Below, piece by piece: positions 7,660-64,000 of a stretch of DNA of 64,000 nucleotides (its first letter is position 1; every line of letters begins with the position of its first letter). The position numbers and the translations under genes are program-made. The stretch covers positions 496,001-560,000 of the forward strand of contig JAUFOR010000003.1 of NCBI GenBank assembly GCA_040285745.1. The letters run 5' to 3'. The notes beneath the pieces are model-generated. The model was not told the DNA's origin, ran no database searches, and saw only the letters and a list, made by a program, of their open reading frames with translations. This DNA comes from Barthelona sp. PCE. Lineage: Eukaryota.

Positions 7660-9249
7660 ATGCCAAGGCCTAATATTCAACACACGGACAAATTTAGTAT
7701 TGTTCGTTTTGGGGATGGGGTAATAATTCAGAGTATTGATGATTCCTTGAATATTAAACGCTTTTTTTGTATACAGGAGGATAAGACCTGCGGCATTAGA
7801 CCTCCACAATCGCCAGATTTGACAACTGGCCACCTGGTATCTTCATCATCCTATTTACATGTTAGTCTCTTGGATTCATCACTATTTTACCACTACTTAA
7901 TGTGCAAGCCGTATGAAAATAGCAGTACCCTTTCTCTTATTCTGGATTTATACAATTTCACAAATAACAAGTTCAATCACATCAATAGCATCTCTTTAAC
8001 TGGTTTAAATCATGATCTGAGGTTCGGCAAGTTGATAAATATGCGGTACTGGATCCAAAATTTAAGTTTAAATCAGAAAATTGTACGAATAATTGATTTG
8101 AGCTCTGCAAAACTTGTAGAGCTTCCTTATCACAGCCGTGTCCATACCCAGGTGCACAATGGCAGTTTGTTTTTGTGTGATGGATAAAACTTCTGGCAAT
8201 AACCAGTTCATCTTCAGTGATAACTCACATGATTTATCCGACAACGCATATTATTTACGATACAATGATATGTTTTTGAATCTGGATTACTCAAGTGCTA
8301 GTAATGAGTGTCAAGTAATTAGCTCTGTTCGAAACTTAATCTTTTTAGGGGAACAAGTTCATAGTTACAACAAAAAAGATTGTTTTTTTTACAAATTGCA
8401 TGATTTTTTTGTTTTTGGTCTCACATCAATCAGTAAGAATGGTCTGTTACTTCAGTTTAAGATGCAGCCAAGATCAAAACAATCGCTAAATGGTGGAAGA
8501 AATCAGGTTGTGTTTTTCAACCATTTTGGTAAACAGTGCTTTATATGCACACCGTCCAAACAAGAATTTCAATCCAGTACACATCTTTTCAGCGTGGAGC
8601 ATCAATATGATGTCGATGAAGGACAGTGGAAAACGCTTTGTATAACTGGTGATAATTATGTGCGGCATTTATATGTTGATGGGGAGAAAGTGTACAGAAC
8701 TTTATTTAAATGGGGAAATCATTGTTGCTCAGGAAACTCAAGAATATGAAAACAGTTTCTTCATCAGAAAGTATTTTTACAGATGACATTGTGTATTTCA
8801 AGTGCAATTCGTTTTCAAAGAATGAATTTTTTATAATAATGGGAGATGTTGGAGAATGTGAGTGTATTTTTATTCAATATAGTGAAGAACTGAAGAAATT
8901 AAAGCATAACAAATTTTGCATTTCATACCCCAGTTTTTGGAAAAATATGTGTGGTTTTTTGGGCAAAAGTTCGCTTATAATTCATAATAAGGTTTATCAT
9001 TTCAAAGAAATAGATGATATGAGTATCCTGGAAGTAAGTTGTATTTCGATTGATGATATAATACCAACTCCGGGTGTAATCATATCGTATGGTGATAACT
9101 TGACCGATTTTCGTCTTTGTGTGAGTGAGATTGTATTTAACAAAACATTTTCCAATTATTCAAAGCATACTACAATAATTAATATGTTAAGTACGGTAGT
9201 TGATTATAATTTTATTCAATTTTCCAGTTTTGGTCAGTTTAAACAATAG
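7660..9249 (+). pseudogene. Frameshifted paralogue of the 61133-62983 gene (pseudogene or assembly indels)
   Basis: Three consecutive overlapping ORFs (7660-8187, 8138-8749, 8710-9249) together align end to end with the intact protein at 61133-62983. Confidence 0.7.
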
Positions 9250-51577: not shown

Positions 51578-52681
51578 ATGAGCATTCCTACCGACTTTAA
51601 GTTATCAAAATACACTGCCCGTAAAGGCTGCTTCTGCAAAGTGCAACAAGAGGACCTCCTTGGCTTCCTCAAGCACGTTTCCGATGAGGATATTGGGCAA
51701 ACTGACTGTAGTATTCAGCCCACCAAATTTGAGGATGTTTTTCAGGTAACAAGCATTGATTTCTTCACCCCTGTGGTGGACAATGTTTATTTACAGGGCC
51801 GTATTGCCATAGCAAATGTTCTGAGCGATATCTACTCACTGGGTATTACCGACCTCACGACCGTCGTTATGGTTCTGTGTCTCTGCCCTGACTGGGATAA
51901 GGACCTTCTTGACGTCGTCGCCGGTACCCTCATGCGTGGTTTCAGCGATGGTGCCAAGTTAGGTGGAGTTCCTGTTGACGGAGGCCAAACCACATATTCC
52001 CCATGGCCTATGATTGGCGGTACCGTCATGTCTGTCTCTCACAAATCAGAGATCATCAACGGAACACATGCAAGTGTTGGAGACGTTGTTATACTGACCA
52101 AACCTTTAGGTACACAGCCTTTGGCCAACGCTATGCAATGGTTATGGCAACAAGAAGAATCTGAGCACCGCCGCGAGCTGGTTGCCAGTCTCGGTATGAC
52201 TCGGGAAGAGATCGAAACCAACGTTGCAAGAAGCGGAAAATGGATGGCCATGTTGAACAAGACCGCAGCTGAAATGATGCATCATGCTGATGCTGTAGCT
52301 GCCACAGATATCACTGGCTTTGGTCTCCTGAACCACGCTACCAACCTCATGAAAACAATGCAGCCTGGCACATTAATGAAAATAGATAGAGTTCCTTGTA
52401 TGCCTGGTGCTATCGAGGTTACTCAGCGTTCAGGTTTCTTCAAACTATTACAAGGCAAGGCAGCCGAGACCAGTGGCGGCCTCCTTGTTATTTTACCTGC
52501 TTCCAAAGTTGAATCCGCTCTTGATTATTTCCAGGAGAAAGAGGGTTATTGTCCTTGGGTTGTTGGTCAAATCGTCGAGGAAGGACAATACCCATGGCTC
52601 GAGGAGGGACGTCGTGCTGGACTAGCCACAGATGTCGAGTTCTTTTCAGCTGATGCTGAACCAAAAGTGGATCTCGAATAA
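51578..52681 (+). CDS. selD: Selenophosphate synthetase (selenide, water dikinase), eukaryote-type, Cys form
   Basis: KGCFCKV, DFFTPVVD, GRIA.ANVLSDIY, GGQT, GD...LTKPLGTQ, AATDITGFGLL.H and ETSGGLL. Confidence 0.95.
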   Translation: MSIPTDFKLSKYTARKGCFCKVQQEDLLGFLKHVSDEDIGQTDCSIQPTKFEDVFQVTSIDFFTPVVDNVYLQGRIAIANVLSDIYSLGITDLTTVVMVLCLCPDWDKDLLDVVAGTLMRGFSDGAKLGGVPVDGGQTTYSPWPMIGGTVMSVSHKSEIINGTHASVGDVVILTKPLGTQPLANAMQWLWQQEESEHRRELVASLGMTREEIETNVARSGKWMAMLNKTAAEMMHHADAVAATDITGFGLLNHATNLMKTMQPGTLMKIDRVPCMPGAIEVTQRSGFFKLLQGKAAETSGGLLVILPASKVESALDYFQEKEGYCPWVVGQIVEEGQYPWLEEGRRAGLATDVEFFSADAEPKVDLE

Positions 52682-52816
52682 TTTTTAGGGTAATTGAAAC
52701 TATTACATTATTTAATCTTCATCTATCCAGGCCAATGAGAACAGTAAGCACAGTTAGCTGCAGAGAATAAAAATGAACTTGCTTTCTATTATCATTCCCA
52801 TTTCAACTAAAGCTAA

Positions 52817-53177
52817 ATGACAGAAGTTAACACTAGCATCCCTGAAGAACCCATGACACCCAATGTCGTTGTTCAACAACCTCTCTCTTATAACGAAGCA
52901 GAGCAAGTATTTTTTCCAGCTTTCATGGCTCATATAAGTATAAACTCATATTTAGCAGCAGATCGAGGCACAACAGGCAGCCTTACTAAAGAACAGATAC
53001 GGCAACAAACTCAAGGCCAATCCATTGGCCCGTCATCTACGAAAATCTCAAAAACGATTCGATTCTGCAGATTTTTTTTCCAACCAACACCGTACAGTTA
53101 ACACAGTACCATACCAGCCTGCCCAACCTGCTCAAACGACTATTGTTGAGCAGCCCAATGAAGCAAACGGTAATTAA
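52817..53177 (+). CDS. ENSA: Endosulfine/ARPP-19 (Igo) family PP2A inhibitor; two exons (52817-52906, 52956-53177)
   Basis: After removing the 49-nt intron it reads QQAALLKNRYGNKLK...LRKSQKRFDSADFF. FDSAD is the family signature. Confidence 0.88.
52907..52955 (+). other. Spliceosomal intron, 49 nt
   Basis: GTATTT...ACTCATATTTAG; removal brings the endosulfine motif into frame with the ATG. Confidence 0.88.
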
Positions 53178-53445
53178 GTCCTCATACTTCCATAGTTTGA
53201 TTGTATTTGAACTTTAGGTAGTTTGAGACATGTGTATTTATTCTTTTATACGGATTCATTAGCGATGTAACGCTTGTAGCATGAAGTTTTTGTTTCATTC
53301 AGTAAAATATTCTTCATTTAGTGATACATAACGTTAGGTGTGTCCAGAAAACATCTATATTTATCATTGATGATCCATAAAAACCATCAAATATAAAAAG
53401 TTGTTTTCCATTTGTCCTTTCTTTTCACCACATTTTCACAATAAG

Positions 53446-54696
53446 ATGGGGCACACTGCTTTTCTTCACAACATACCAGCATCATTTGGGGAGCCATATC
53501 TTCTTCATTTGTTAAGTTTGTTTTCTTCTTTCGAGCAATGGACTGCTCTCCCACTAATATCTCCTGTAAACGGGAACTGTGTGTTCTCGAGTGTCTATGA
53601 AGGCTTTGTATCATTCACCACACAACAGGGTGTCACACAAATTCACAGGTTGCTCAATAACTTCATGATTGATGGTCGCAGCCTGAAAGTCAATATTGAC
53701 AACGCAGTACAGAGTGATACTGAGACGAAACAGAACGATGCACGTGTAGAAACAGCGATTAAGCGTCTCTTTAAACAGAGAAGGGAATCACATTTCTCCC
53801 TTTCGACAACCACAGATCTTATTCGAACTGAACTGGTCGAGACAACTGATCTTACTGAGTACGAGGTATGGATGCTCAGGAACTGTCACATACAATTACA
53901 AAAATTACACATGCAACGCATCACAGGAAAACTGCGCAAACATCAGGAGCAAGAGTCTTTTGAGGCAAATATCCTTGAAAAGGTGGCTCGGATGCGTCAA
54001 GAGCGAGAGTGGGCTGTTAACGAGCACGGACCTGGTCTTCGGAGAGAGAAAGAAAAGAAAATGAGAAGGAGGAGGACCGCACTGATGGAGCAGATCATCC
54101 GTGACGGAAACATTGCGCTAGAGGTGATGCATCACGTGGAAGGGCTGTTTGCAAACACATCAGACCAGAGTGTTTTCGAAAACATGCATATTGCTATGAG
54201 TATTGTCAACGAGACACTTTTACTCGACGGTAAGGTTGTTAGTAACGTACATTGCATGTCAGCAGACCCGGATCCGGCCAGGTGTCGCCCGTTTGAGCTA
54301 AAAAAAGTACCTCTCTATGGTACAGATGAAGATGTTCTTTATAAGTTGATCGATCTGATACCCATAAGTAGGAAGGCTCTATATGAGATTGAGTGTGTGA
54401 AAACGGTACTAAATACGTTTGATGTTGAAGGTGTGTTGATGGAGAGTTTAAGTCAAAACATTCTTCCGATTGCAGAGGATAAAACGGAAAATGTGATAGA
54501 ATTTGTTGTACGAGAGCTCTTTGAGCGCTTTTCAAGCAACACGAACAGCTGCTGCATTGCACTAGATATGGAGAAAGCTCTTTCTTCTGATTTGTTAGAA
54601 TTGGAGACTGCAAAAAAAGTTGTTATTCAGTTATGGAGACATTTGGTATTCCTGCAATTAATTAGTGAGTATAAGCAGATTGATGATAAGCAGTAG
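53446..54696 (+). CDS. RBM25: RBM25/SNU71-like splicing factor (RRM + charged region + PWI)
   Basis: N-terminal RRM (TAFLHNIP, GFVSF, LNNF.IDGR.LKV) and C-terminal PWI (LIDLIP.SR..LY ... VIEFV ... VIQLWRHL.F). Confidence 0.72.
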   Translation: MGHTAFLHNIPASFGEPYLLHLLSLFSSFEQWTALPLISPVNGNCVFSSVYEGFVSFTTQQGVTQIHRLLNNFMIDGRSLKVNIDNAVQSDTETKQNDARVETAIKRLFKQRRESHFSLSTTTDLIRTELVETTDLTEYEVWMLRNCHIQLQKLHMQRITGKLRKHQEQESFEANILEKVARMRQEREWAVNEHGPGLRREKEKKMRRRRTALMEQIIRDGNIALEVMHHVEGLFANTSDQSVFENMHIAMSIVNETLLLDGKVVSNVHCMSADPDPARCRPFELKKVPLYGTDEDVLYKLIDLIPISRKALYEIECVKTVLNTFDVEGVLMESLSQNILPIAEDKTENVIEFVVRELFERFSSNTNSCCIALDMEKALSSDLLELETAKKVVIQLWRHLVFLQLISEYKQIDDKQ

Positions 54697-54784
54697 TTAC
54701 ATGAGCAGTACACAAGAATATATATTTGAAGAAGAACATTACACAAAGTAAATTTCATATTTATTGATACTGGCTGTATTAGTC

Positions 54785-54806
54785 ACATGTTTTGAACAAA
54801 ACATGT
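54785..54806. repeat. Perfect inverted repeat, 10-bp arms
   Basis: ACATGTTTTG-AA-CAAAACATGT. Confidence 0.9.
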
Positions 54807-55836
54807 TTACAGTTTGGAAAAATGGAAATGTAGTAAAATTCAAGTTTCAAAAAAAAAATTTCGACATAATTACATTTTCTATGGAATTCATTCAATTATT
54901 AAACTTTAATTATGTATGATAAAACAAATATCACTAATAATATTCCACAAAAGCTCAAAAAAAAAAAATATCAGAAAACTAGTATCATGGTCTTGATTTT
55001 TATGGTGTATGCACTATTTTTTTTTTACAACTGTAAAGATTTTTAATACCTCCTTAATGTTTTTATTCGTTGAACAATCAAAGTTATTTCTCAGCGCTTA
55101 AACAAAATAGAAATCTTATTTTAATGCTTGAAGATGTAATTAATGTTTAAATACGTTTTAAAGCAAAAATATTGTATGAGAATAAAAATTAATGCAAACA
55201 TGCAAAATTTTTTTTCCTGCAAAACATCTTTTTTGATTTTTACTACATATCAGCAGATGTATAATATCAATAAATGTCTATCAAAAATCCCAAGAACATG
55301 TATTTATCTCTTTTAAATAAACCTGCATAATTTGTTTTAGTTTTATTCCTTTTAATAAATATTAAGTGTGTATTAGCCCATTAATAAGACCGCATTTCCT
55401 CATTTTTCAACCACAATGGAGCACTTAAGAGGTATGGTTAGGTTATACTCGATACAGGTACTTTTAATGTGTACTTTGGGAGCTTAATGAATTCATAATG
55501 TTGAACATTGCAGGGAATAAATAGAATCATGTTATGATTTTAATGATTGCAGCATTTTTTCTAAACAATGAAGAGTTTTTTATGTTTGTAAGTTTTATAC
55601 ATTGAATTATATTCCGTATTGTACTTATTGGACAGTTTTGATATTTATGATAAAGAACAAAGATAAGGAAGCATAACGTAATGTTGAGTTTCTTTGTAAA
55701 TAGCTTATCCTAATATTTTTAGTGTTTTATTTAAGATAATTTTGTCTTATTTTCGGTTAAATTCAGCTGAGCACATCTTACATATGTAGTTGTAGCTTTT
55801 ACTATGATTTTTTGTTTTCTTTTTCTTTTCAACATT

Positions 55837-56247
55837 ATGCCACCTAAGAATTCTGCCAGTAGCACAACTCCCAAAAAAAGAGGCAGACCCCGTCTTGAAA
55901 TTGATATGAATGATGTTGTACAAAGAATGAGAAAAGGTGAGACTCAAGAGGAAATTGCGGCTGCAGCGAACTGTTCCCCATCGACTATTAAGAGCAGACG
56001 TGATGAATTGATTCCTAAACAAGAAGATAAACTTAATATGGAGAGAGGTCGTGGTTACAGGCAGGGTAAAAGAGAAGGAAGAATTGAGGGACAAAACTCT
56101 GTTAGTACCTCTCCTGCTCCCGCAAAAAGAAAATCTGCTCCAAGAAGAACAACTACCAAAAAATCAGCAACTGCAAAAAAATCCGCCCCAAAAAGATCAA
56201 CTAACAGAAGAACTACAACTGCAAAAAGAAAAACCACCAAAAAATAA
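55837..56247 (+). CDS. Small basic DNA-binding protein: AT-hook + helix-turn-helix + histone H1-like tail
   Basis: PKKRGRPR, GETQEEIAAAANCSPSTIKS, GYRQGKREG, then a K/R/T/S/A/P-rich tail. Confidence 0.82.
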   Translation: MPPKNSASSTTPKKRGRPRLEIDMNDVVQRMRKGETQEEIAAAANCSPSTIKSRRDELIPKQEDKLNMERGRGYRQGKREGRIEGQNSVSTSPAPAKRKSAPRRTTTKKSATAKKSAPKRSTNRRTTTAKRKTTKK

Positions 56248-56292
56248 CTTTTTCATATGGATTGATTAGTTTTAAATGTAATAAATTGTAAT

Positions 56293-56315
56293 AATTTTCA
56301 CAATTTGTGAAAATT
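56293..56315. promoter_or_regulatory. Perfect 23-bp palindrome, candidate protein-binding site
   Basis: AATTTTCACAA-T-TTGTGAAAATT, ending 10 bp upstream of the CCCTTATCA motif and 44 bp upstream of ATG 56360. The palindrome is certain; its function is inferred. Confidence 0.5.
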
Positions 56316-56359
56316 GTTTTTCTGTCCCTTATCACTAATTTTTGTTTAGCAAACATGAG

Positions 56360-59300
56360 ATGGATAACTTTTTAACCCTTACATCTGCTGATTTACGCTA
56401 TAACGAGCTTTTTAGTCAACTCTTTAGTTCCGCTATTGATTTAGATGCTATTACATTCTCAGACATCCCGTCTCTTAAGGCCCAGCGCATATACTTGGAT
56501 CTCAGCATCGTCAAGAAACGTTACGACGAAGTCTACCAAATTGGACTGTCAGCCAGCACAAAGACCAGCTGGGTCAGAAAGTACATTGCCAATCTGTTCA
56601 AGACACAGCCCAAGTTCTTTCACCACATGATCACCAAGGAGAACCTGCTTGAGGTATTCTCAACAGCACCTGTTGCTTTTCGAGCAAGATACCTCTCTCA
56701 GTTGTCTCGTTACGGTAAGAACGGACGCTACACAGCCATTGCTGATGTAATTATCAGCGATCCTGCATGGAACCAGCTCTTGAGCGGTAAGCAGCTGCGT
56801 ACTCTCTACATTGCTGCTTCACCCACCGTTGCCAAGAAGTACATTCTGGATAAGTTCAACGTCAGCAAGAGTATTCCCTTTGAGTTCATTCAGCCTCGTT
56901 TCTATGAAATTGTCTATGAAATTTATATTGATGCTATGCACAAGAATGACGATAGTCAGCTTTATGGTTCAACCCATAATCATTACCGCTTCAACAATTA
57001 CGTGCTTAATTCCCCTGAAAAGTCTCGTGAGATCTTTTTGGACCGAATTAAAACTGGACAAAACGTTCACTCTGTTGCATATCTTTGCAATTCATCCAAG
57101 ATGCATAAATCACAACTTTTAAATCGTATTATGCACAAATTCGCAGTCGAAGAGCCGAAATTTTTCGTTGATGAGCTCTTCAAGGCTGAATTCTACACTT
57201 ATTCAACATTCTGGGAGATGATGCCTTACTTCATCAAGTATCACGGTGATGATGTTGCTGTTAAGGCATTTAAATTAGCTCAAAAGCGCAGCTTTAGACC
57301 AATATCTTCTATCAGAAGCCAGTATCGTGAGAGGGGTATTGCTTTCTCAACCAAACCCGGTAGTCTTTTCGTGCGTTTGCTTGAATGTTATTTCGACGAA
57401 TCTATTTTGCATATATTCACTATTGCTAAGGATACGGTCAACAAAGAAATTGGGTATGTTGTTCAAGACTGGCACAATGTCGAACAGTACTTTCATACTC
57501 CTAAAGACCCTCACAGCTATTTCCCAGGTCTTGATAAGTTCAGACATGCATTGGCCAACCACCTGTATGTTCAGCTTGAGAAGGAAGAGTATTGGGACCG
57601 TTACTATAAGCCCGAGCATCTTGGCAACCAGGTTGGCACCATCTTGAATTTTGTCACTCTTGAGTGTGCCACCACCCCCAAACCCGAATATACCGTTCGT
57701 CTTTCTGGTAAAACCTATGAGGTTTCCCACATTTTGTATCTTTTCATTGGCAAGAACGGACTTCTCCATACCGATGCCTACTCTACGCTTTACCGTTTGC
57801 TCCAGCGTTTCATCTGCACCGGCGACTGGACAGAGTGGGATACCTTCAAGGCCGTCACTCCTCACATTATCGGACGTGTTCCTGAGGATTCTTACTGTTA
57901 CATCAATATCGATTATGATCACTGTCCCTTCTTCTACAAGCCTGAGACAGTAGACAACCTCGCTGAATACTTCATCGCCAACATTGATCATAAGATCATG
58001 CACAACATCTACAAATCAATGGATTTGTACCAGTTTATGGTCAACCACAAGATTGCTCCTAATTTCTTCCCTCTTGAGCACATGAAGCACTTCTTTGACA
58101 AGATGATGGAGATTGCTGATATCTACGATGAGAAGGTTGATAGGCGCAAGGAGGGCGCCGCCACTTTCATCAGATACACATTTCTCAACCATCACGGTTT
58201 TTACACACAACGGCCGTTCGTTCTCTTGCCTCACAAGTTCGAGCGTGGTAAATGTTACACTATTTACAATCTCGATGATAAGCGCAACAACAGCACTCAA
58301 GAGCGTCACGATAAGTACAACAAGATCGTCAACTACGTGTCTGAAGAATGCTATCGCTACGTCATTGATGACCTTCTTGCTCGTCAAGCCACAGCCAGCA
58401 CTGACGTATCTATTCTTCAGCGCATCTTCAACAGTCTTATTCATACGCTTAACATCCGTCGTGTTTGGAACTATGCGGAGAAACAGTTGTGCTTTGATAA
58501 CCAAGAACTTGTGCGTCAATACTCCCTTGACCAGTACATTTGCCTCTGTAACGGCAGCACCGTTGCTCCCCTCAGGATGCTCTGTGTCGACGCCACTGAT
58601 ATGCCCGGACCAGACAAGGTCTATCCCATTGCTCGCCCCAAGGCCCGCCACAAGGTTGTCAAGGGTTACCAAGACCCCTTAACGAACAGCCGTATCATTA
58701 CTCGCAGTGACTTCGTTAGCAAGATGTACAGAATCAGCTCCGTCTATGACATCCCCAACGTTGAGCGCTTCGATTCCCTTGCTATCCAGGTTCGCGATGA
58801 GATTGCTCATTACTTCGATCCCCTCGACAAGCTGTTCGGTCTTTACGCCGATCTCGAGGAGCTGGATCGCGATATCTCGGAGATGAGCGACCGCGACATC
58901 GAGGATGAGGAGGCCGAAGCTGAGTACAAGGAGATGCTTCAGTCCCGCCGTGACCTTGTCGAGAGCATCTCTGATCAGATCAGCAGCACCCTGGACCTGC
59001 TCGAGATTAACAACATGCTCCGTACTCTGCAGTTCTCCCTTCGCTTCTCCACAACCTTCCTCAATGAAGAGTTCGTCAAGCGCATTATTGGCTTCACACA
59101 CCTTTCCAACCGTGCTTTCACCAACTCAAACATCCTTGAGCTCTTCAAGCGCGTCATCTTCATCCTCGGCCGCATTATGTGCCTCACCGATCTCCCTTTC
59201 GCTGAGATGGCCCGCTCCGCGCTTCTCACTGCCCTCACTATCCCCAAGTCTGCTCCTTTCGTGCGCACTCTTCTCGAGGGATATGTCATGCACACGTCTG

Positions 59301-60779
59301 TCGAGGAGCAGAAGCGTCTTTTCGATGATCTCATTGCTCTCGCATATTCCGATGAGTGGCGCTTCGGCATCACTCCCATGAAGATGATTATCGGAGTTGT
59401 CCAGGCACTATCCCGTCAGAACGCTGGCGTTAACCCCGCCGCCTTCCTAAAGGTTATGTGGGACCAGGAGACCATGGCAGTCGATGTCCGTCTTGTTCTG
59501 CTCAACTTCGCCGTTGATCAGATCTCTCTCATGCTCAACAAGGGATGGAGCGATTCCGTTTTCGAGAGCGAGTACTGGCAGCTCGTCGGTCTCGCTGCAC
59601 GCCGTTTCTACGGTGTTGTTGTGATTGTCGAGCGCATCGTTGAGTTCATCACCTTCCTCTACAACAAGATCGGCACCGAGCACTGGAACGATGCCTTCAA
59701 TTGTGTTGTTGGCCACTGGCTCTGCCCCATCATGGAGAAGGAGTTCCGTGACACTCGTACCGACTACAAGAACGTCGAGATCGTCCTTAATTCCATCATT
59801 AATGCCTCTCTTCACAACCAAGGTTACTCTCTTGTTAATGTATCGCTCCCCTGACCGCTTCCTGCAGTTCTGTGAGCAGTACGCCCAGCCCATCTTCCGC
59901 TACTTCAGCCGCTTCACCGAGATGATCTGCCTCGTCTTCTCTCAGCGTCGTGATAGCAAGCGCCTCCTAAAGATGCTCGAGCCTCTCAAGGACACTTTCC
60001 GCGAGAACCTCACTGTTTCTATCGAGCAGCACCTGGCAAAGGCCCGCGATCGCACCCACCAGTTGTATGTGCCTTTCTTGAACAACAATTTGGTTGCTCA
60101 GAAGCTTACTGATGTGTGCAAGTACTATCTGAAGGACGATATTGCTCTCACACGGGAGTTCTTCAGAACCATCTCTACTTTCATGCTTGAGTGTTACAAC
60201 GAGATCGATGGCTTCCATATCGGAGAGGTTTGGTGGAAGACATTTATCGCTGGTTACCATGAGCTCATTCCCGCCATTAAGGCAGTTCTCAAGCTTTACA
60301 GTGGCGAATTGAAGCTACCTCACATTTCTTACAACGGCAATCACTTTTCTCTCTTAGGTGCACTCATGTACGTTGAAGTTCGTTCTGAGACGGTAGATAA
60401 TATGTGCAAGGCCATGAAATTGATCGAGGACTCTGATTTGAAGTCATGCTTAAAGCTAAGATGGATGACGATTATGCTTAAGGTGTTCACTGATGGTGGT
60501 ATTGGTTACAGTGGTACTTATCTATATCCTTCTTCTTATATCGATCGCATCCCTCTTGAGACATTTTTACGTGCTCGTGTCTCAGACACTTCATATTTCA
60601 ATGTTTTGACCAGATTCTTGGATATAATTCGCGCAGGTGCTTATTACACCAGTATGTCTCGTGATTCGGTTTCAGCTTTCCGCATCGGCACCAAGAGGAT
60701 TGCATCCAAGAAGGATATTGAGCCTTACATTCGTCCAATCATTCGCCCAGCTAATGATGAGAGCACAAACACTGAATAA
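56360..60779 (+). CDS. Large (about 1470 aa) unknown, mostly helical protein interrupted by one +1 frameshift near 59835-59855
   Basis: ORF 56360-59854 and the 3' part of ORF 59625-60779 share the same C-ending codon bias. The preferred frame switches at ..CTTGTTAATGTATCGCTCCCCTGAC. Confidence 0.72.
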
Positions 60780-61097
60780 AGCGTTAGATTTGATGTAGAG
60801 AAACATAGCAAAGTTGAAACTGACACAAGTATTGAACCGACTGATAAACCGCCAGCAAAGCGAGGAAGACCCTCTAAAAATCTTCCCAAGGAAGAGGTGG
60901 CGAGAATGATGGACACTGGGCATATTCAAAAAGAAATTGCAGAACAACTAGATTGTTCCATAAAAACATTATACAATTTTAGGAAAAAAAATTTCACGGA
61001 GGAGGAGGATCGATTACACAAAGAAAAGGGTAAGAGCTACAGAGAAGGATACAGAGAAGGATACAAAGCGAGTAAGAAAGCTGCCAAAACAAAATAA
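60780..61097 (+). CDS. Second AT-hook + HTH reading frame, paralogue of 55837-56247; start unresolved
   Basis: The frame is open from the TAA at 60777-60779: SVRFDVEK...AKRGRPSKNLPKEEVARMMDTGHIQKEIAEQLDCSIKTLYN...GKSYREGYREG. Confidence 0.68.
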   Translation, partial: SVRFDVEKHSKVETDTSIEPTDKPPAKRGRPSKNLPKEEVARMMDTGHIQKEIAEQLDCSIKTLYNFRKKNFTEEEDRLHKEKGKSYREGYREGYKASKKAAKTK

Positions 61098-61132
61098 AAA
61101 CAAATTTTTTCTGCAACAACACAGTGCGTGTA

Positions 61133-62983
61133 TTAAACTGCAAAACCGGCAAAGGAGGAGAATATTGTCGAGATATCACAATCACCAAGAAACTCCAATA
61201 TACTCACAGTATCCGTTTTCACACAGAGCTCTGTTTCTGAACTTTCAAAGACTAAAATGCTCTTATTTACCTGGAAATCCTTCAAGTTCATATAACCAAC
61301 CAAAACACCTGGCTTTGGTGACTGCAGATAGCAGTTAACCAGCTGAACACCGCGCTGTTTCTTGATACCGCTTGTATCAAATTCAAACACCTTGTTACCG
61401 TAGGCAAGGATGCCCGTGTCTATGAAGCATGGATTGACAGATCTTCTATAGTAATCGAATTCATAGCACTTAAGATCTTCGTCCTGTTCATCATATCTGA
61501 CAATATAACATTGTGCGCAGCATTCTTGTGGGCAATATGGATTGGCAACAAGTCTTTTGATGTTCCCCATCCACTTTTCCACAGTTTTAACAACTTCACC
61601 AGCAGCGTTTAATATATGCATCACAAGATGCCCCCCGTCCATATACCAAACGTAGTTTCCAACTATCCTGAGGTACTTAACCCGATCTTTGCATGTTATA
61701 CGACTGCCGTTTAGTACTAGAATAGTCTCATCATCATCATTTCTTATGAAAATTGCACCACTATTTCCACAAAACGAAATTTCAGCACAATAAGTATCAT
61801 CAAGAGGCTTGTCGATGGTTGCAGCTATAGATCCGTCATCATTATAAATATAACAGCTGTGTTTCGTTTCAGTAGCAAATGCGATATCCCATTTTTTTGT
61901 GTCACTGCTGTAAAACCTGCACATGCTGTGGAAAACATGACCCTCAAAGCAACTATCAGGCGAACAATGTATCAAAGCAGCAGAGTTATTGTACATGTCC
62001 AAGTGCACTGGAAAATCTCTAAAAGAAGCTGCTCTTATTTCTGAAAGAGGAGTTGAGTACTCATCCAACATGAACATGCACTGCACATCGTGCTTATCCA
62101 TCCGGTAAAAGTTAGTTACCCCAGTTGCACCATCATACTCAGAGCAATAAACCTCGTCATCAATGCAAACAAAATTCCAGTGCTCACAAACAACATCTGG
62201 GAAGCGACTGCGGATGGTAGGTTGAGGCACAATGACATCAAGCACACGGGCGATGATGTCTCCCTTTTCCACATTCCCGTTGAACGGTGTTCTGATTAAT
62301 TCACTGTTTTTATCGATTCTGCAGCTGAAAAGCGTGTCATTTTCAGCTGTAATGAAACGGGTGCATCCGGGCGTGTGATCCATAGCATAGACCGAATAAT
62401 TTTGTAATACACAGTGTACGGGTATTTCTTCACCTTCATCCACCATGAACGTCTTAACAGCTCGGTCGGCCCCATGTATCACGTAGGCAACTCCGTCATG
62501 CGAAACATATTGGATATTTGTACAATCTATGCTTGGCCGCATCACAATACGTTCCTGATCAAGATCCCATATTATATGGGCCCATGAGTCTTCTTCCCTC
62601 ACGATACCCACGAAAAAGCGCCCATTTAACATGACTCCGTGTATTTTGAAAGGTAAAATGACATGTCGAACAAAGGTAAACTCCCCTTCACAGAATTCAA
62701 ACAATTCCAACTTCCATCTCTCATCTCTGGACCTATACGAGGAGCGGTAGAATATGGTGGGCTCAATAAGAGTGGGTTTCAATATAGAATGCGGACTATA
62801 TTGATTGTGTGGGAGAATCATGCGGGAGATACGTGAGGTGAAGGTTTGTGGGCCCCGTAAGACATTGTCTTCATTCTTACTTATGTAACATATTGAACGT
62901 GTGTTGATTTTGCTATTTGTGCTTATTGCAAAAGCTGTATGCTTTAAAGAGATAAATGTGAAGTTTTTTGGTGCAATATTCAT
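61133..62983 (-). CDS. Uncharacterised beta-rich protein of an apparently expanded family
   Basis: Intact ORF of about 616 aa rich in short hydrophobic beta-type segments, with a paralogue at 7660-9249. Confidence 0.8.
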   Translation of the reverse strand: MNIAPKNFTFISLKHTAFAISTNSKINTRSICYISKNEDNVLRGPQTFTSRISRMILPHNQYSPHSILKPTLIEPTIFYRSSYRSRDERWKLELFEFCEGEFTFVRHVILPFKIHGVMLNGRFFVGIVREEDSWAHIIWDLDQERIVMRPSIDCTNIQYVSHDGVAYVIHGADRAVKTFMVDEGEEIPVHCVLQNYSVYAMDHTPGCTRFITAENDTLFSCRIDKNSELIRTPFNGNVEKGDIIARVLDVIVPQPTIRSRFPDVVCEHWNFVCIDDEVYCSEYDGATGVTNFYRMDKHDVQCMFMLDEYSTPLSEIRAASFRDFPVHLDMYNNSAALIHCSPDSCFEGHVFHSMCRFYSSDTKKWDIAFATETKHSCYIYNDDGSIAATIDKPLDDTYCAEISFCGNSGAIFIRNDDDETILVLNGSRITCKDRVKYLRIVGNYVWYMDGGHLVMHILNAAGEVVKTVEKWMGNIKRLVANPYCPQECCAQCYIVRYDEQDEDLKCYEFDYYRRSVNPCFIDTGILAYGNKVFEFDTSGIKKQRGVQLVNCYLQSPKPGVLVGYMNLKDFQVNKSILVFESSETELCVKTDTVSILEFLGDCDISTIFSSFAGFAV

Positions 62984-63411
62984 TAAAGAAGCCCATAAAA
63001 ATCCACTATTAATTCGATACAAGAAAGAAATTGATAATCACGGGAATCCATTATTTAAAGATGTCAGAGACTTTGAATATGCATATTCATCCTTTTGAAG
63101 TTTGATAGTACTTTGGCTTCAGATATTCAGATAGTTTTTGTTTCAAAAACTGTTGCTGATTGTTTCTCACATATTTACAACAGCAAAGCTCGTAGCATCA
63201 TGTTCAAAACAAAGTAAAAGCAAGGTAATATACGTTTTATGATAAATGAAGCAGTAGTAGTTTGTGCATGTAAGCAGTTTCCGAATATAGGATTATCTGT
63301 AACTTAAAGATCCACGAATGTAACAAATTTATACCCTTTTATGATACGCAATATTTCAGAACAAGTGTCTAAATTTGTAGTCGATTATTCACACCATTCC
63401 AATTCATTTCA

Positions 63412-63750
63412 ATGCTTAACGATTTGAAAGACATCGCAAGAGAGTACAGCGAAAAGCAGTCCATGCAAGATGCTCCCGGTACAGCGCACTTAAACAAGTA
63501 CATTTTTCTTTTTGCGTTTTTAGCAGCCTTTACCATTCTTTGTCGAGTCATCATTGGAGATTTCCCGTTCAACGCATTCCTCGGTGCATTGTTCTGTAGT
63601 GTTGGGTGTCTCACATTAACTGTTTCTCTAAAAATTCAGCTTAACAAGTCTGAATCATCAGAGTTCAAGTTCAAACCTTCACGCATCCTTGCAGACTTCT
63701 TTATTGTGAGTGTATTACTCATATTCATTTCAATCAGTTTCCTTGGTTAA
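63412..63750 (+). CDS. DAD1: Oligosaccharyltransferase subunit DAD1/OST2
   Basis: GDFPFNAFLGALFCSVG..TL.VSLKIQ.N ... R..ADF.......F...SFLG. Confidence 0.95.
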   Translation: MLNDLKDIAREYSEKQSMQDAPGTAHLNKYIFLFAFLAAFTILCRVIIGDFPFNAFLGALFCSVGCLTLTVSLKIQLNKSESSEFKFKPSRILADFFIVSVLLIFISISFLG

Positions 63751-63810
63751 AATGCAAACTTTTTTATTAGGTTAGATGAAAAATCGTGTAAACAGTCAGT
63801 TGTTCGTTAC

Positions 63811-64000
63811 TTATTCTTCAGCTGGAATTTCTGTTGCTGAGAGTTCTTCATTAGATACAGTTTCCACATCTAAAAGCTCACGCTCAGTCATTCCTTCCTC
63901 AATTCGCACTTCCTCCTCGACCATGTCTTCGCTAGCAAGCTCCTCTTCTTCAAGAACTTCTTCAACGACTTCTTCAACGACTTCTTCTTCAACTTGAGAA
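63811..64000 (-). CDS. Glu-rich C-terminus of a gene starting beyond the window
   Basis: Minus-strand frame ..SQVEEEVVEEVVEEVLEEEE..EIPAEE-stop. Confidence 0.75.
   Translation of the reverse strand, partial: SQVEEEVVEEVVEEVLEEEELASEDMVEEEVRIEEGMTERELLDVETVSNEELSATEIPAEE

Follow-up and report, generated by a model that had tools for sequence, protein, structure and literature searches.

GRP-HTH proteins and the Barthelona locus

A Gly-Arg-Pro (GRP) minor-groove arm preceding a helix-turn-helix (HTH) is a feature of Hin and gamma-delta resolvase, and Hin-type domains bind short inverted-repeat sites. In these serine recombinases (Hin/Gin, gamma-delta resolvase; Pfam HTH_7, PF02796) the arm lies directly ahead of a short three-helix HTH. 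The same layout is found in two small paralogous frames, HTH1 and HTH2, which flank a large gene in Barthelona sp. PCE. The recombinases, however, carry an N-terminal catalytic resolvase domain, whereas the Barthelona HTH proteins are free-standing and eukaryotic, fall below the HTH_7 cut-off and, in the case of HTH1, end in a basic tail. Phage and bacterial GRP-HTH proteins (PHROG 309, 'terminase small subunit'-like; P0121, P0127, P0139, P0152 and P0155) match the pair in size class, and these five proteins share with it a K/R-rich lead, the GRP and the HTH pattern G.T..EIA...CS..T. According to the alignment, the C-terminal ML(I/K)WL(G/S)K..LGQKD of the metagenomic GRP-HTH proteins is absent from the Barthelona pair, which has G..YR.G.REG and a basic tail in its place. 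Tandem multi-HTH metagenomic proteins (HTH_23/HTH_28/HTH_7 arrays) are the top profile matches of the pair (E 3e-22 to 1e-10). They carry 3-9 repeats resembling the Barthelona module, in contrast to one module per protein in Barthelona, and score highly because their scores are summed over repeats.

The stretch analyzed here ('the window') is 64 kb of nuclear DNA. According to the genome description (PMC11316075), Barthelona sp. PCE has a genome of 10.2 Mb, reportedly the smallest of any free-living eukaryote, and its assembly is based on Nanopore R9.5 data with Illumina polishing (PMC11316075). All of the elements that an earlier note on this DNA had named are present where it placed them, with two corrections to the description of the large gene and of HTH2. 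The first gene of the locus follows, as claimed there, the longest gap between genes in the window, an AT-rich stretch at 54697-55836 (no strand; GC 0.29-0.37). Gaps were defined over the whole window as stretches without an ATG-initiated ORF of 120 aa or more; this one measures 1107 nt up to the in-frame ATG at 55804 and 1140 nt up to the annotated HTH1 start at 55837. It was searched for genes, RNA families and tRNAs, and none was recognized. A seemingly larger gap at 1-2402 was rejected as an artefact, the ORF there running past the window end. The neighbors of the locus are ordinary cellular genes (coatomer gamma, DEAD-box helicase and AIR-synthase-related protein, according to Pfam).

The HTH pair

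HTH1 (P0001; 55837-56247, forward strand) is an annotated protein of 136 aa that consists of a KRGRP arm, a three-helix HTH, the motif ED.L..E.G..YR.G.REG and a basic tail rich in Lys, Arg, Thr and Ala and made of short repeats (repeat family D1). HTH2 (60780-61097, forward strand) is a 105-codon open frame not annotated as a protein. The two align without gaps, as the earlier note had proposed, with 28 identities over 70 aa (40%, E 1e-16), and tblastn with the HTH proteins across the 64 kb returned these two copies and no others. The assignment of HTH2 as an open frame paralogous to HTH1 holds, but it has no ATG of its own before the arm: none lies upstream of KRGRP, the first in-frame one being at 60906. 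Nevertheless, the frame has the marks of coding constraint, with only 0.035% of shuffles remaining open across 105 codons and identities to HTH1 of 0.50/0.67/0.36 by codon position.

A resemblance to resolvase-type GRP-HTH modules had also been suggested, and near-threshold matches support it. Pfam HTH_7 (resolvase HTH), the best or second-best match of both proteins, scores 21.4 bits for HTH1 and 22.6 bits for HTH2, both below the gathering cut-off of 23.8; HTH_28, HTH_23 and GerE are further near-threshold matches. Among PHROG families, HTH2 matches DNA invertase (best), small terminase subunit and transposase at E 4e-5 to 4e-4; phrog_309 matches only its HTH part (E 2.3e-4) and gave no match to HTH1. 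In both proteins KRGRP sits 8-9 residues N-terminal of the HTH, within PKKRGRPR (HTH1) and PAKRGRPS (HTH2). Both stretches fit the AT-hook consensus, an R-G-R-P core in basic surroundings.

The pair appears to be unique to this locus as far as annotated proteins go. A protein search with HTH1 recovered only itself among 153 candidates, and of 241 matches to an HTH1+HTH2 profile in 1.84 billion representatives, HTH1 alone scored above 1e-30. No protein among the top 150 profile matches is as close to the pair as its members are to each other, and 14 of the 16 profile matches scanned with Pfam are multi-HTH proteins. No other HTH paralogue was found among annotated proteins, a set from which HTH2 itself is missing.

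The closest single-domain relatives of the pair are short metagenomic proteins with the N-terminal GRP+HTH layout. One of them, P0127, is 42% identical to HTH1 over 52 aa (E 3e-10) and clears the HTH_7 cut-off (29.7 bits), and two such relatives reside on contigs of about 39 kb. No eukaryotic relative was recognized among the profile matches, which carry no taxon names. It might be argued from these relatives, and from the weak matches of GRP-HTH proteins to the small terminase subunit and DNA invertase families of PHROGs, that the HTH genes came from a phage or a bacterium eaten by this bacterivore and now encode host chromatin proteins, their linkage to the large gene being accidental. However, the similarity extends over only about 50 residues, in a fold that is very widespread, the Barthelona proteins lack the C-terminal ..IWLGK..LGQKD motif of the metagenomic relatives, and the GC3 values of HTH1 (0.25) and HTH2 (0.33) are host-like and AT-rich. 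We consider such an origin distinctly unlikely.

A four-copy large gene

The gene between the two HTH frames, described earlier as an unknown gene of about 1470 codons, is real and has about 1471 codons, but is split over two frames by an extra C. The first frame (56360-59851, forward strand; codons 1-1164) is annotated separately as P0005; the second (59853-60779, forward strand) comprises codons 1165-1472 plus the TAA and is represented in the annotation by a 285-aa piece (P0004). The break is due to one extra C in the CCCC run at 59848-59851 (forward strand), one base beyond the reading of the paralogues, all three of which are uninterrupted at this site (..VNVSLPDRFLQF..). The extra base could be a residual Nanopore homopolymer error in a multi-copy tract or the mark of a pseudogene, error being the more likely; still, the break in the window copy may be real. 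A contig with CCC at the run site probably derives from a paralogue. An out-of-frame ATG lies 4 nt upstream of the start, at 56356.

Rather than an ordinary single-copy gene, a possibility raised in the earlier note, this gene, with a 1471-aa product, is one of four copies known only from Barthelona. A search with the large protein (7009 candidates) recovered only PCE1_002450 (94%) and PCE1_002472 (65%), and its 90% cluster also includes PCE1_002073 and the two pieces of the window copy. The three other copies are on another contig (1,423,133 bp; that of the window is 1,587,787 bp), and none of these annotated paralogues carries an HTH.

Divergence between copies is strikingly uneven. Against P0003, the large protein is 18-73% identical over alignment columns 1-750, 90-100% identical over columns 751-1250 and 38-62% identical from column 1301 onward. 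Within the large gene, GC3 is 0.60-0.76 in codons 751-1250 and 0.36-0.70 (mean about 0.5) elsewhere; 16 further frames in the window have values of 0.25-0.51. Multigene families can be homogenized by gene conversion. Since near-identity to a diverged paralogue coincides with raised GC3, codons ~751-1250 have the appearance of a conversion tract, and sharply bounded near-identity within otherwise diverged paralogues is likewise seen in families homogenized in this way. The tract (58610-60230, forward strand; columns ~751-1290) has borders defined from the protein sequences of the paralogues, GC3 being measured on the window copy. The data point to some 1.6 kb kept near-identical among all four copies by gene conversion, which, judging from base composition, is probably GC-biased.

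The large protein has no sequence family match (Pfam, PHROGs, NCBIfam) and no Pfam repeat match. Structure prediction and Foldseek, which the earlier note had recommended, yielded an all-alpha protein with HEAT/ARM-like matches only. Two AlphaFold models are all-helical (pLDDT 52.7 and 64.0). Foldseek lists are dominated by HEAT/ARM repeat proteins at TM 0.1-0.3, and VIA gave HEAT/ARM matches with Z 10-13.3 over 200-300 residues, Z values that VIA itself describes as usual for any helical repeat. HEAT/ARM scaffolds (PP2A B56, importins/exportins, TOG domains, beta-catenin, FANCI) stack helices in pairs or triplets into a superhelix, and both models show all-alpha, paired-helix repeats, although no sequence family match links them to the large protein and model confidence is low to middling. 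On the models, the protein is presumably a HEAT/ARM-like alpha-solenoid that serves as a protein-binding scaffold.

The dispersal of the large gene in four copies bears on the earlier proposal of a mobile or domesticated module, in which the HTH modules would be DNA-binding remnants of a transposase or recombinase, and the large gene its cargo or part of the element. The HTH type occurs in resolvases, invertases and IS630/Tc1 transposases, and an AT-rich gap adjoins the locus. Nonetheless, no frame of the locus encodes a catalytic domain: searches of Pfam, PHROGs and NCBIfam revealed no transposase, integrase or recombinase gene, and no catalytic resolvase domain in the HTH pair, in the large protein or in neighboring genes. 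No terminal inverted or direct repeats bound the unit, the region 52500-64000 containing only short scattered repeats of 14-26 nt. The earlier note, too, had recognized no transposase, integrase or terminal repeats. In addition, viral contigs yielded no relative, the HTH does not occur in multiple copies among annotated proteins, and the flanking genes are ordinary cellular ones. The locus is not a segmental unit either, because the downstream 616-aa gene, which has four ~30% paralogues at loci not adjoining the solenoid paralogues, was not co-duplicated with the solenoid gene. The proposal thus retains little support, and we regard a mobile element as highly improbable.

Is HTH2 part of the large protein?

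HTH2 is in the frame of the 3' part of the large gene, with the TAA at 60777-60779 as the sole separator. Its 105-codon open extension past that stop is the longest among 33 ORFs (median 10). Together with the coding constraint on a frame that has no ATG before its conserved arm, these features would be expected if HTH2 were the C-terminal DNA-binding domain of the solenoid, translated by readthrough of the TAA now or until recently and tethering the scaffold to DNA. On the other hand, frames are shared by chance in one case out of three, and TAA is the commonest ordinary stop here (23 of 33 ORFs). PCE1_002450 and PCE1_002073 stop at the position of the window copy (..TE), PCE1_002472 ends earlier, and none of the three has an HTH. 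Nor was a fused form found among proteins of 640-2037 aa. A readthrough fusion is, in our view, very unlikely.

Palindromes and the upstream motif

The earlier observation of a perfect 23-bp palindrome between HTH1 and the large gene proved correct. It lies at 56293-56315 (no strand; 11+1+11, AATTTTCACAA-T-TTGTGAAAATT), 46 nt past the HTH1 stop and 45 nt ahead of the ATG of the large gene (112-nt spacer), and no other perfect palindrome in the window is as long. Its length is only modestly beyond chance, since 11.7% of 60 block shuffles produce a palindrome with arms of 11 nt or more in 64 kb. The second-longest (ACATGTTTTG-AA-CAAAACATGT; 54785-54806, no strand) is ~90 nt past the stop of the upstream gene, so both of the longest palindromes fall within the HTH/large-gene locus. 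As single-stranded DNA they fold with z = -4.6 and z = -2.6, respectively.

Each arm of the 23-bp palindrome contains TTTTCACAA, an instance of a T-rich/TCA motif that we derived from this window alone, using 31 upstream regions. Roughly half of the window's genes are preceded by it: of the 31 upstream 50-mers, 16 contain TTTTC (background 10.7%, p 2e-8) and 13 contain TTTCA (p 9e-6). TTTTCACAA itself occurs five times in the window, in both palindrome arms, once ahead of gene 53446, where it ends 5 nt short of the ATG, and twice inside genes.

An arrangement of regulator, operator and target, in which HTH1 and perhaps HTH2 would bind the palindrome as a dimer and control transcription of the solenoid gene, draws on the palindrome's perfection, length and position in the spacer, on the presence of a GRP arm and an HTH, a combination with which recombinases recognize short inverted repeats, and on the confinement of this HTH family to the locus among annotated proteins. 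Yet the motif in the arms is a common one ahead of unrelated genes, and the window shows no enrichment of the half-site (10 matches versus 6.0 +/- 2.4 expected; 11 of 100 shuffles reach 10). An equally long palindrome appears somewhere in the window in 11.7% of shuffles, none of the other solenoid copies is annotated with an HTH gene beside it, and in eukaryotes a regulator adjoining its target is not the rule. We therefore judge this arrangement unlikely. Still more far-fetched is a single unit built around a module captured from a phage or bacterium, with HTH1 binding the palindromic core promoter of the solenoid gene and HTH2 added by readthrough to give a DNA-tethered scaffold of 1577 residues. 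If true, the three genes would form a self-contained eukaryotic cassette of regulator, operator and DNA-targeted effector in the free-living eukaryote with the smallest genome known.

Most probable history of the locus

The reading we prefer, held with slightly less than even confidence, is that of three lineage-specific neighbors brought together by history on ordinary chromosomal DNA, with no demonstrated functional cassette. HTH1 would be a small nuclear DNA-binding protein; going by domain type, it would place its KRGRP arm in the minor groove of AT-rich DNA, use the resolvase/invertase-type three-helix HTH to read the major groove and gain additional, unspecific DNA affinity from its basic, histone-H1-like tail. 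The large gene would be one of four HEAT/ARM-like solenoid copies with ~1.6 kb held uniform through gene conversion. HTH2 is plausibly an old HTH1 paralogue that evolved under coding constraint and is now without its own start codon. We infer as the likeliest course that HTH1 and HTH2 arose as tandem duplicates, and that a solenoid copy landed between them and removed the 5' end of HTH2. The 23-bp palindrome is most simply viewed as two copies, in opposite orientation, of the T-rich/TCA, initiator-like core-promoter motif, and this doublet as a putative promoter of the solenoid gene. The flanking HTH pair, the frame sharing and long extension of HTH2, and the two palindromes are more readily explained by a functional link than by history alone, but both the regulator-operator and the mobile-element readings are unproven, and on present evidence the locus is not a new kind of system.

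Because the Barthelona genome is so streamlined, its multi-copy content is informative. A four-copy, 4.4-kb orphan gene with 1.6 kb apparently kept uniform through gene conversion is unexpected ballast in so tiny a genome. The pair of resolvase/terminase-type GRP-HTH proteins may represent prokaryotic or phage modules recruited as chromatin proteins or regulators, and the T-rich/TCA motif is a candidate core-promoter element for a little-studied lineage.

Genomic setting of the locus

Long ORFs are densely packed in the window and give Pfam matches to coatomer gamma, an SPB4-type DEAD-box helicase and AIR-synthase-related domains, which identifies the stretch as part of a compact eukaryotic genome. 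The AIR-synthase-related protein (51578-52681, + strand) carries AIRS and AIRS_C domains, and its N-terminus presumably resembles selenophosphate synthetase. At 10.2 Mb, the Barthelona sp. PCE genome is the smallest known among free-living eukaryotes (PMC11316075). The sections of the genome paper available to us mention neither the large-gene family described below, nor helix-turn-helix proteins, nor gene families (PMC11316075).

The locus opens with the longest intergenic stretch of the window (54697-55836), as the earlier note had it, and the region is AT-rich (GC 0.29 in 55001-56000, computed by kilobase). An annotated gene for a 136-aa GRP-HTH protein follows (HTH1, 55837-56247), then a palindrome, a large orphan gene and an unannotated paralogous frame (HTH2, 60780-61097). 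Scans of the locus for Rfam families (E up to 0.1) and tRNAs gave no match. Further downstream, a 616-aa orphan with no Pfam domain is encoded on the - strand (61133-62983). Together with four relatives at 29-31% identity (PCE1_003072, 000624, 001021, 001378), spread over three contigs, it forms a family specific to Barthelona.

Two paralogous GRP-HTH proteins

HTH1 and HTH2 can be aligned without gaps (28/70 identities, E 1e-16), which confirms the proposed paralogy; a tblastn search within the 64-kb window found no third copy. Common to both is KRGRP followed, after 8-9 residues, by a three-helix HTH (V..M..G..Q.EIA....CS..T) and then by ED.L..E.G..YR.G.REG. The C-terminal tail of HTH1 is rich in Lys, Arg, Thr and Ala and is composed of short repeats. 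Pfam scores are near threshold for both HTH1 (HTH_28 21.8 bits, HTH_7 21.4, GerE 18.9) and HTH2 (HTH_7 22.6 bits, HTH_23 19.8, GerE 19.5), so that strict membership is narrowly missed at cut-offs of 23.5-25 bits for these families. Among PHROGs, HTH2 matches DNA invertase (E 4e-5), terminase small subunit (E 2e-4) and transposase (E 4e-4). The suggested resemblance to a resolvase-type module is thus a sound domain call, given the near-threshold HTH_7 scores.

An exhaustive profile search covering 1.84 billion representatives gave 241 matches at E up to 1e-3, HTH1 itself being the only one beyond 1e-30. Most of the others come from metagenomes and carry between 3 and 9 HTH modules in tandem (14 of the 16 matches scanned with Pfam are of this multi-HTH type). 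Five short, single-module metagenomic proteins (P0121, P0127, P0139, P0152 and P0155) share the N-terminal GRP-HTH layout of the Barthelona pair; P0127 is 42% identical to HTH1 over 52 aa (E 3e-10). The short metagenomic relatives have a C-terminal ..IWLGK..LGQKD segment that is absent from the Barthelona proteins, and two of them are located on contigs of ~39 kb. A word-indexed search recovered only HTH1 among 153 candidates. Since neither search found any other member, the family in the annotated proteome consists of HTH1 alone, with HTH2 as its unannotated second member. The HTH genes might have come from a phage or a bacterium and be linked to the large gene by accident. The PHROG matches and metagenomic relatives would fit this origin, which we consider unlikely; it is compatible with the historical account given at the end. 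A search of viral contigs found no relatives of the HTH pair. A literature search for comparable eukaryotic GRP-HTH cases found none that was relevant.

HTH2 lacks a start codon but is constrained

No in-frame ATG precedes the KRGRP arm of HTH2. The first ATG is at 60906, and a start there would remove the arm and helix 1. HTH2 is in frame with the 3' part of the large gene and separated from it by the TAA alone. The open stretch after this stop, 105 codons, is the longest among the 33 ORFs of at least 200 aa in the window, for which the median is 10 codons and the next values are 90, 74 and 50. Nor is HTH2 decayed, as only 0.035% of base shuffles remain open. Nucleotide identity between HTH1 and HTH2 at codon positions 1, 2 and 3 is 0.50, 0.67 and 0.36, the signature of long-term purifying selection. 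Because HTH2 is start-less and in frame behind an ordinary TAA stop, yet constrained, it is either a gene that recently lost its start or a sequence whose expression is unusual (readthrough, non-AUG initiation). Readthrough would yield a fusion of the large protein with HTH2, a product that the shared frame and the long open stretch would permit; the annotated paralogues PCE1_002450 and PCE1_002073 terminate at the same ..TE position as the window copy, and we regard such a fusion as improbable. HTH2 has an in-frame ATT (60832-60834) 10 codons upstream of its RGRP, a position roughly comparable to that of the HTH1 ATG, 14 codons before its RGRP. That this ATT is a mutated former start codon is pure conjecture.

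The large gene: frame break and predicted fold

The gene of about 1470 codons reported earlier is present (+ strand, ATG 56360 to TAA 60777-60779), but its reading frame is not continuous: it runs in two frames, split at the C-run 59848-59851, and is therefore annotated as two proteins, 1164 and 285 aa long. All three paralogues (PCE1_002450, PCE1_002073 and PCE1_002472) read SLVNVSLPDRFLQFCEQ at this position, as does the window copy once one C of the run is removed. A 28-nt GT..AG intron spanning the break was rejected, as the paralogues continue straight through with one C fewer. Only four short contigs of sequencing run X1 match 52000-64000, and one of them, the sole read evidence on the break, has CCC rather than CCCC at 59848. 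In another, A>G at 60626 corresponds exactly to the Ile-to-Met change characteristic of PCE1_002450 and PCE1_002073. The X1 contigs are thus probably derived from paralogues, and the CCC contig is therefore uninformative about the window copy. The assembly was built from Nanopore R9.5 reads polished with Illumina reads (PMC11316075). We lean towards an assembly error, because the break falls in a homopolymer within a block present in several copies, the kind of place in which polishing a Nanopore assembly with short reads works least well. At the 5' end, an out-of-frame ATG at 56356-56362 (ATGAGATGG) overlaps the start codon of the large gene and begins an upstream ORF of 6 codons.

Two other places in the window show overlapping frames. 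At 7660-9249 (+ strand), three successive overlapping ORFs of 175, 203 and 179 aa occupy three frames, of which the middle gives a weak match, below the cut-off, to a ConA-like lectin (E 1.7e-4); they may be pieces of another gene that indels or introns interrupt. The pair 18093/19117 was rejected as a further frameshift, being two distinct genes that code for a Nop-domain protein and a PI3/4-kinase. The 33 ORFs of at least 200 aa end in TAA (23), TAG (7) or TGA (3), and the frequency of TAA led us to reject an alternative code in which TAA would be a sense codon. TGA seems rarely to serve as a genuine stop in the window, because one of the three is the frame-break stop (59852-59854) and another terminates an ORF on the antisense strand (57347-57991) that is probably spurious.

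The large protein has no match in Pfam, PHROGs or NCBIfam, none among PDB sequences beyond a glutathione transferase at E 0.18, and no relatives in JGI metagenome or viral contigs; against the ESM Atlas, the best feature score (0.79) is below the chance level of the tool. AlphaFold models of residues 1-830 (pLDDT 52.7; 60-84 in the first ~350 residues) and 751-1164 (pLDDT 64.0, pTM 0.59) are both all-helical, with repeated helix pairs. Foldseek/VIA searches with these models returned only HEAT/ARM solenoids (PP2A-B56, UNC-45, importins, TOG domains, beta-catenin, FANCI), with TM 0.1-0.3 and Z 10-13, values that the tool itself rates as common for helical repeats. We read the protein as a putative alpha-solenoid scaffold specific to this lineage, and go no further than that.

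A near-identical block in diverged paralogues

The only named matches of the large protein are the hypothetical proteins PCE1_002450 and PCE1_002472 of Barthelona sp. PCE; with PCE1_002073 and the window copy, the family comprises four copies. The three named copies are on a contig other than that of the window (gene numbers 2073, 2450 and 2472). PCE1_002450 and PCE1_002073 are 99% identical to each other and each 94% identical to the window copy over the first 1164 aa, whereas PCE1_002472 is 65% identical to it. The latter identity is unevenly distributed: 18-73% in alignment columns 1-750, 90-100% in columns 751-1250, 88% in columns 1251-1300 and 38-62% from column 1301. In the paralogue comparison, made at the protein level only, the block corresponding to 58610-60230 (columns 751-1250) is 90-100% identical among all four copies. 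GC3, measured on the DNA of the window copy, is 0.60-0.76 in this block, the highest in the window, compared with 0.36-0.70 (mean ~0.5) in the rest of the gene and 0.25-0.51 in 16 other frames. Such a sharply bounded, GC-enriched block of identity within diverged paralogues suggests gene conversion, probably GC-biased.

The palindrome and an upstream motif

The perfect 23-bp palindrome reported between HTH1 and the large gene (AATTTTCACAA-T-TTGTGAAAATT, 56293-56315) was found as described and is the longest in the window. The second longest (54785-54806, 10+2+10) also falls within this locus, ~90 nt past the stop codon of gene 53446-54696. Palindromes with arms of at least 11 nt arise in 11.7% of block shuffles. 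Each arm contains TTTTCACAA. This sequence recurs in front of the neighbouring gene 53446, where it stops 5 nt short of the ATG, and CTTTTCAAC is found 12 nt before the HTH1 ATG. Among the upstream 50-mers of 31 window genes, 16 contain TTTTC, compared with 10.7% of background windows (p 2e-8); TTTCA is present in 13 (p 9e-6). Allowing at most one mismatch, the 11-nt half-site occurs 10 times in the window, where 6.0 +/- 2.4 occurrences are expected, and so shows no enrichment.

In roughly half of the 31 genes, a T-rich/TCA motif ((C)CTTTTCA-like) is located ~5-30 nt from the ATG, which makes it a candidate initiator element for Barthelona. The simplest reading of the palindrome is an inverted doublet of this initiator-like core-promoter motif before the large gene. 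Binding by HTH1 is then no longer needed, though compatible, and we find it unlikely that HTH1 and the palindrome form a real regulator-operator pair.

Cassette or neighbours by history

Whether HTH1, the palindrome, the large gene and HTH2 constitute one functional cassette can be argued both ways. The only two known members of the HTH family bracket the large gene, HTH2 shares its frame, and the window's two longest palindromes fall within the locus. However, no annotated HTH paralogue accompanies the other three large-gene copies, and the four ~30% paralogues of the downstream 616-aa orphan are at unrelated loci. Moreover, terminal repeats and a catalytic gene are absent: a repeat search and scans with Pfam, PHROGs and NCBIfam bear out the earlier failure to recognise a transposase, an integrase or terminal repeats, and nowhere in the locus did a catalytic domain of a recombinase or transposase turn up. 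A mobile element, for all the resolvase-type character of the HTH pair, is thus very improbable. The anatomy first described consists of real parts and is richer than supposed, but any functional link between them is hypothetical. These parts belong to known kinds, namely a resolvase-type GRP-HTH, an alpha-solenoid and a gene-conversion tract. We tentatively regard history as the best explanation: HTH1 and HTH2 would have arisen as tandem duplicates, and a solenoid copy would later have ended up between them, removing the start of HTH2.

The significance of the locus is modest and rests mainly on the extreme genome reduction of the organism and on HTH2, start-less but constrained. The near-identical block also suggests GC-biased gene conversion within a 10-Mb genome.
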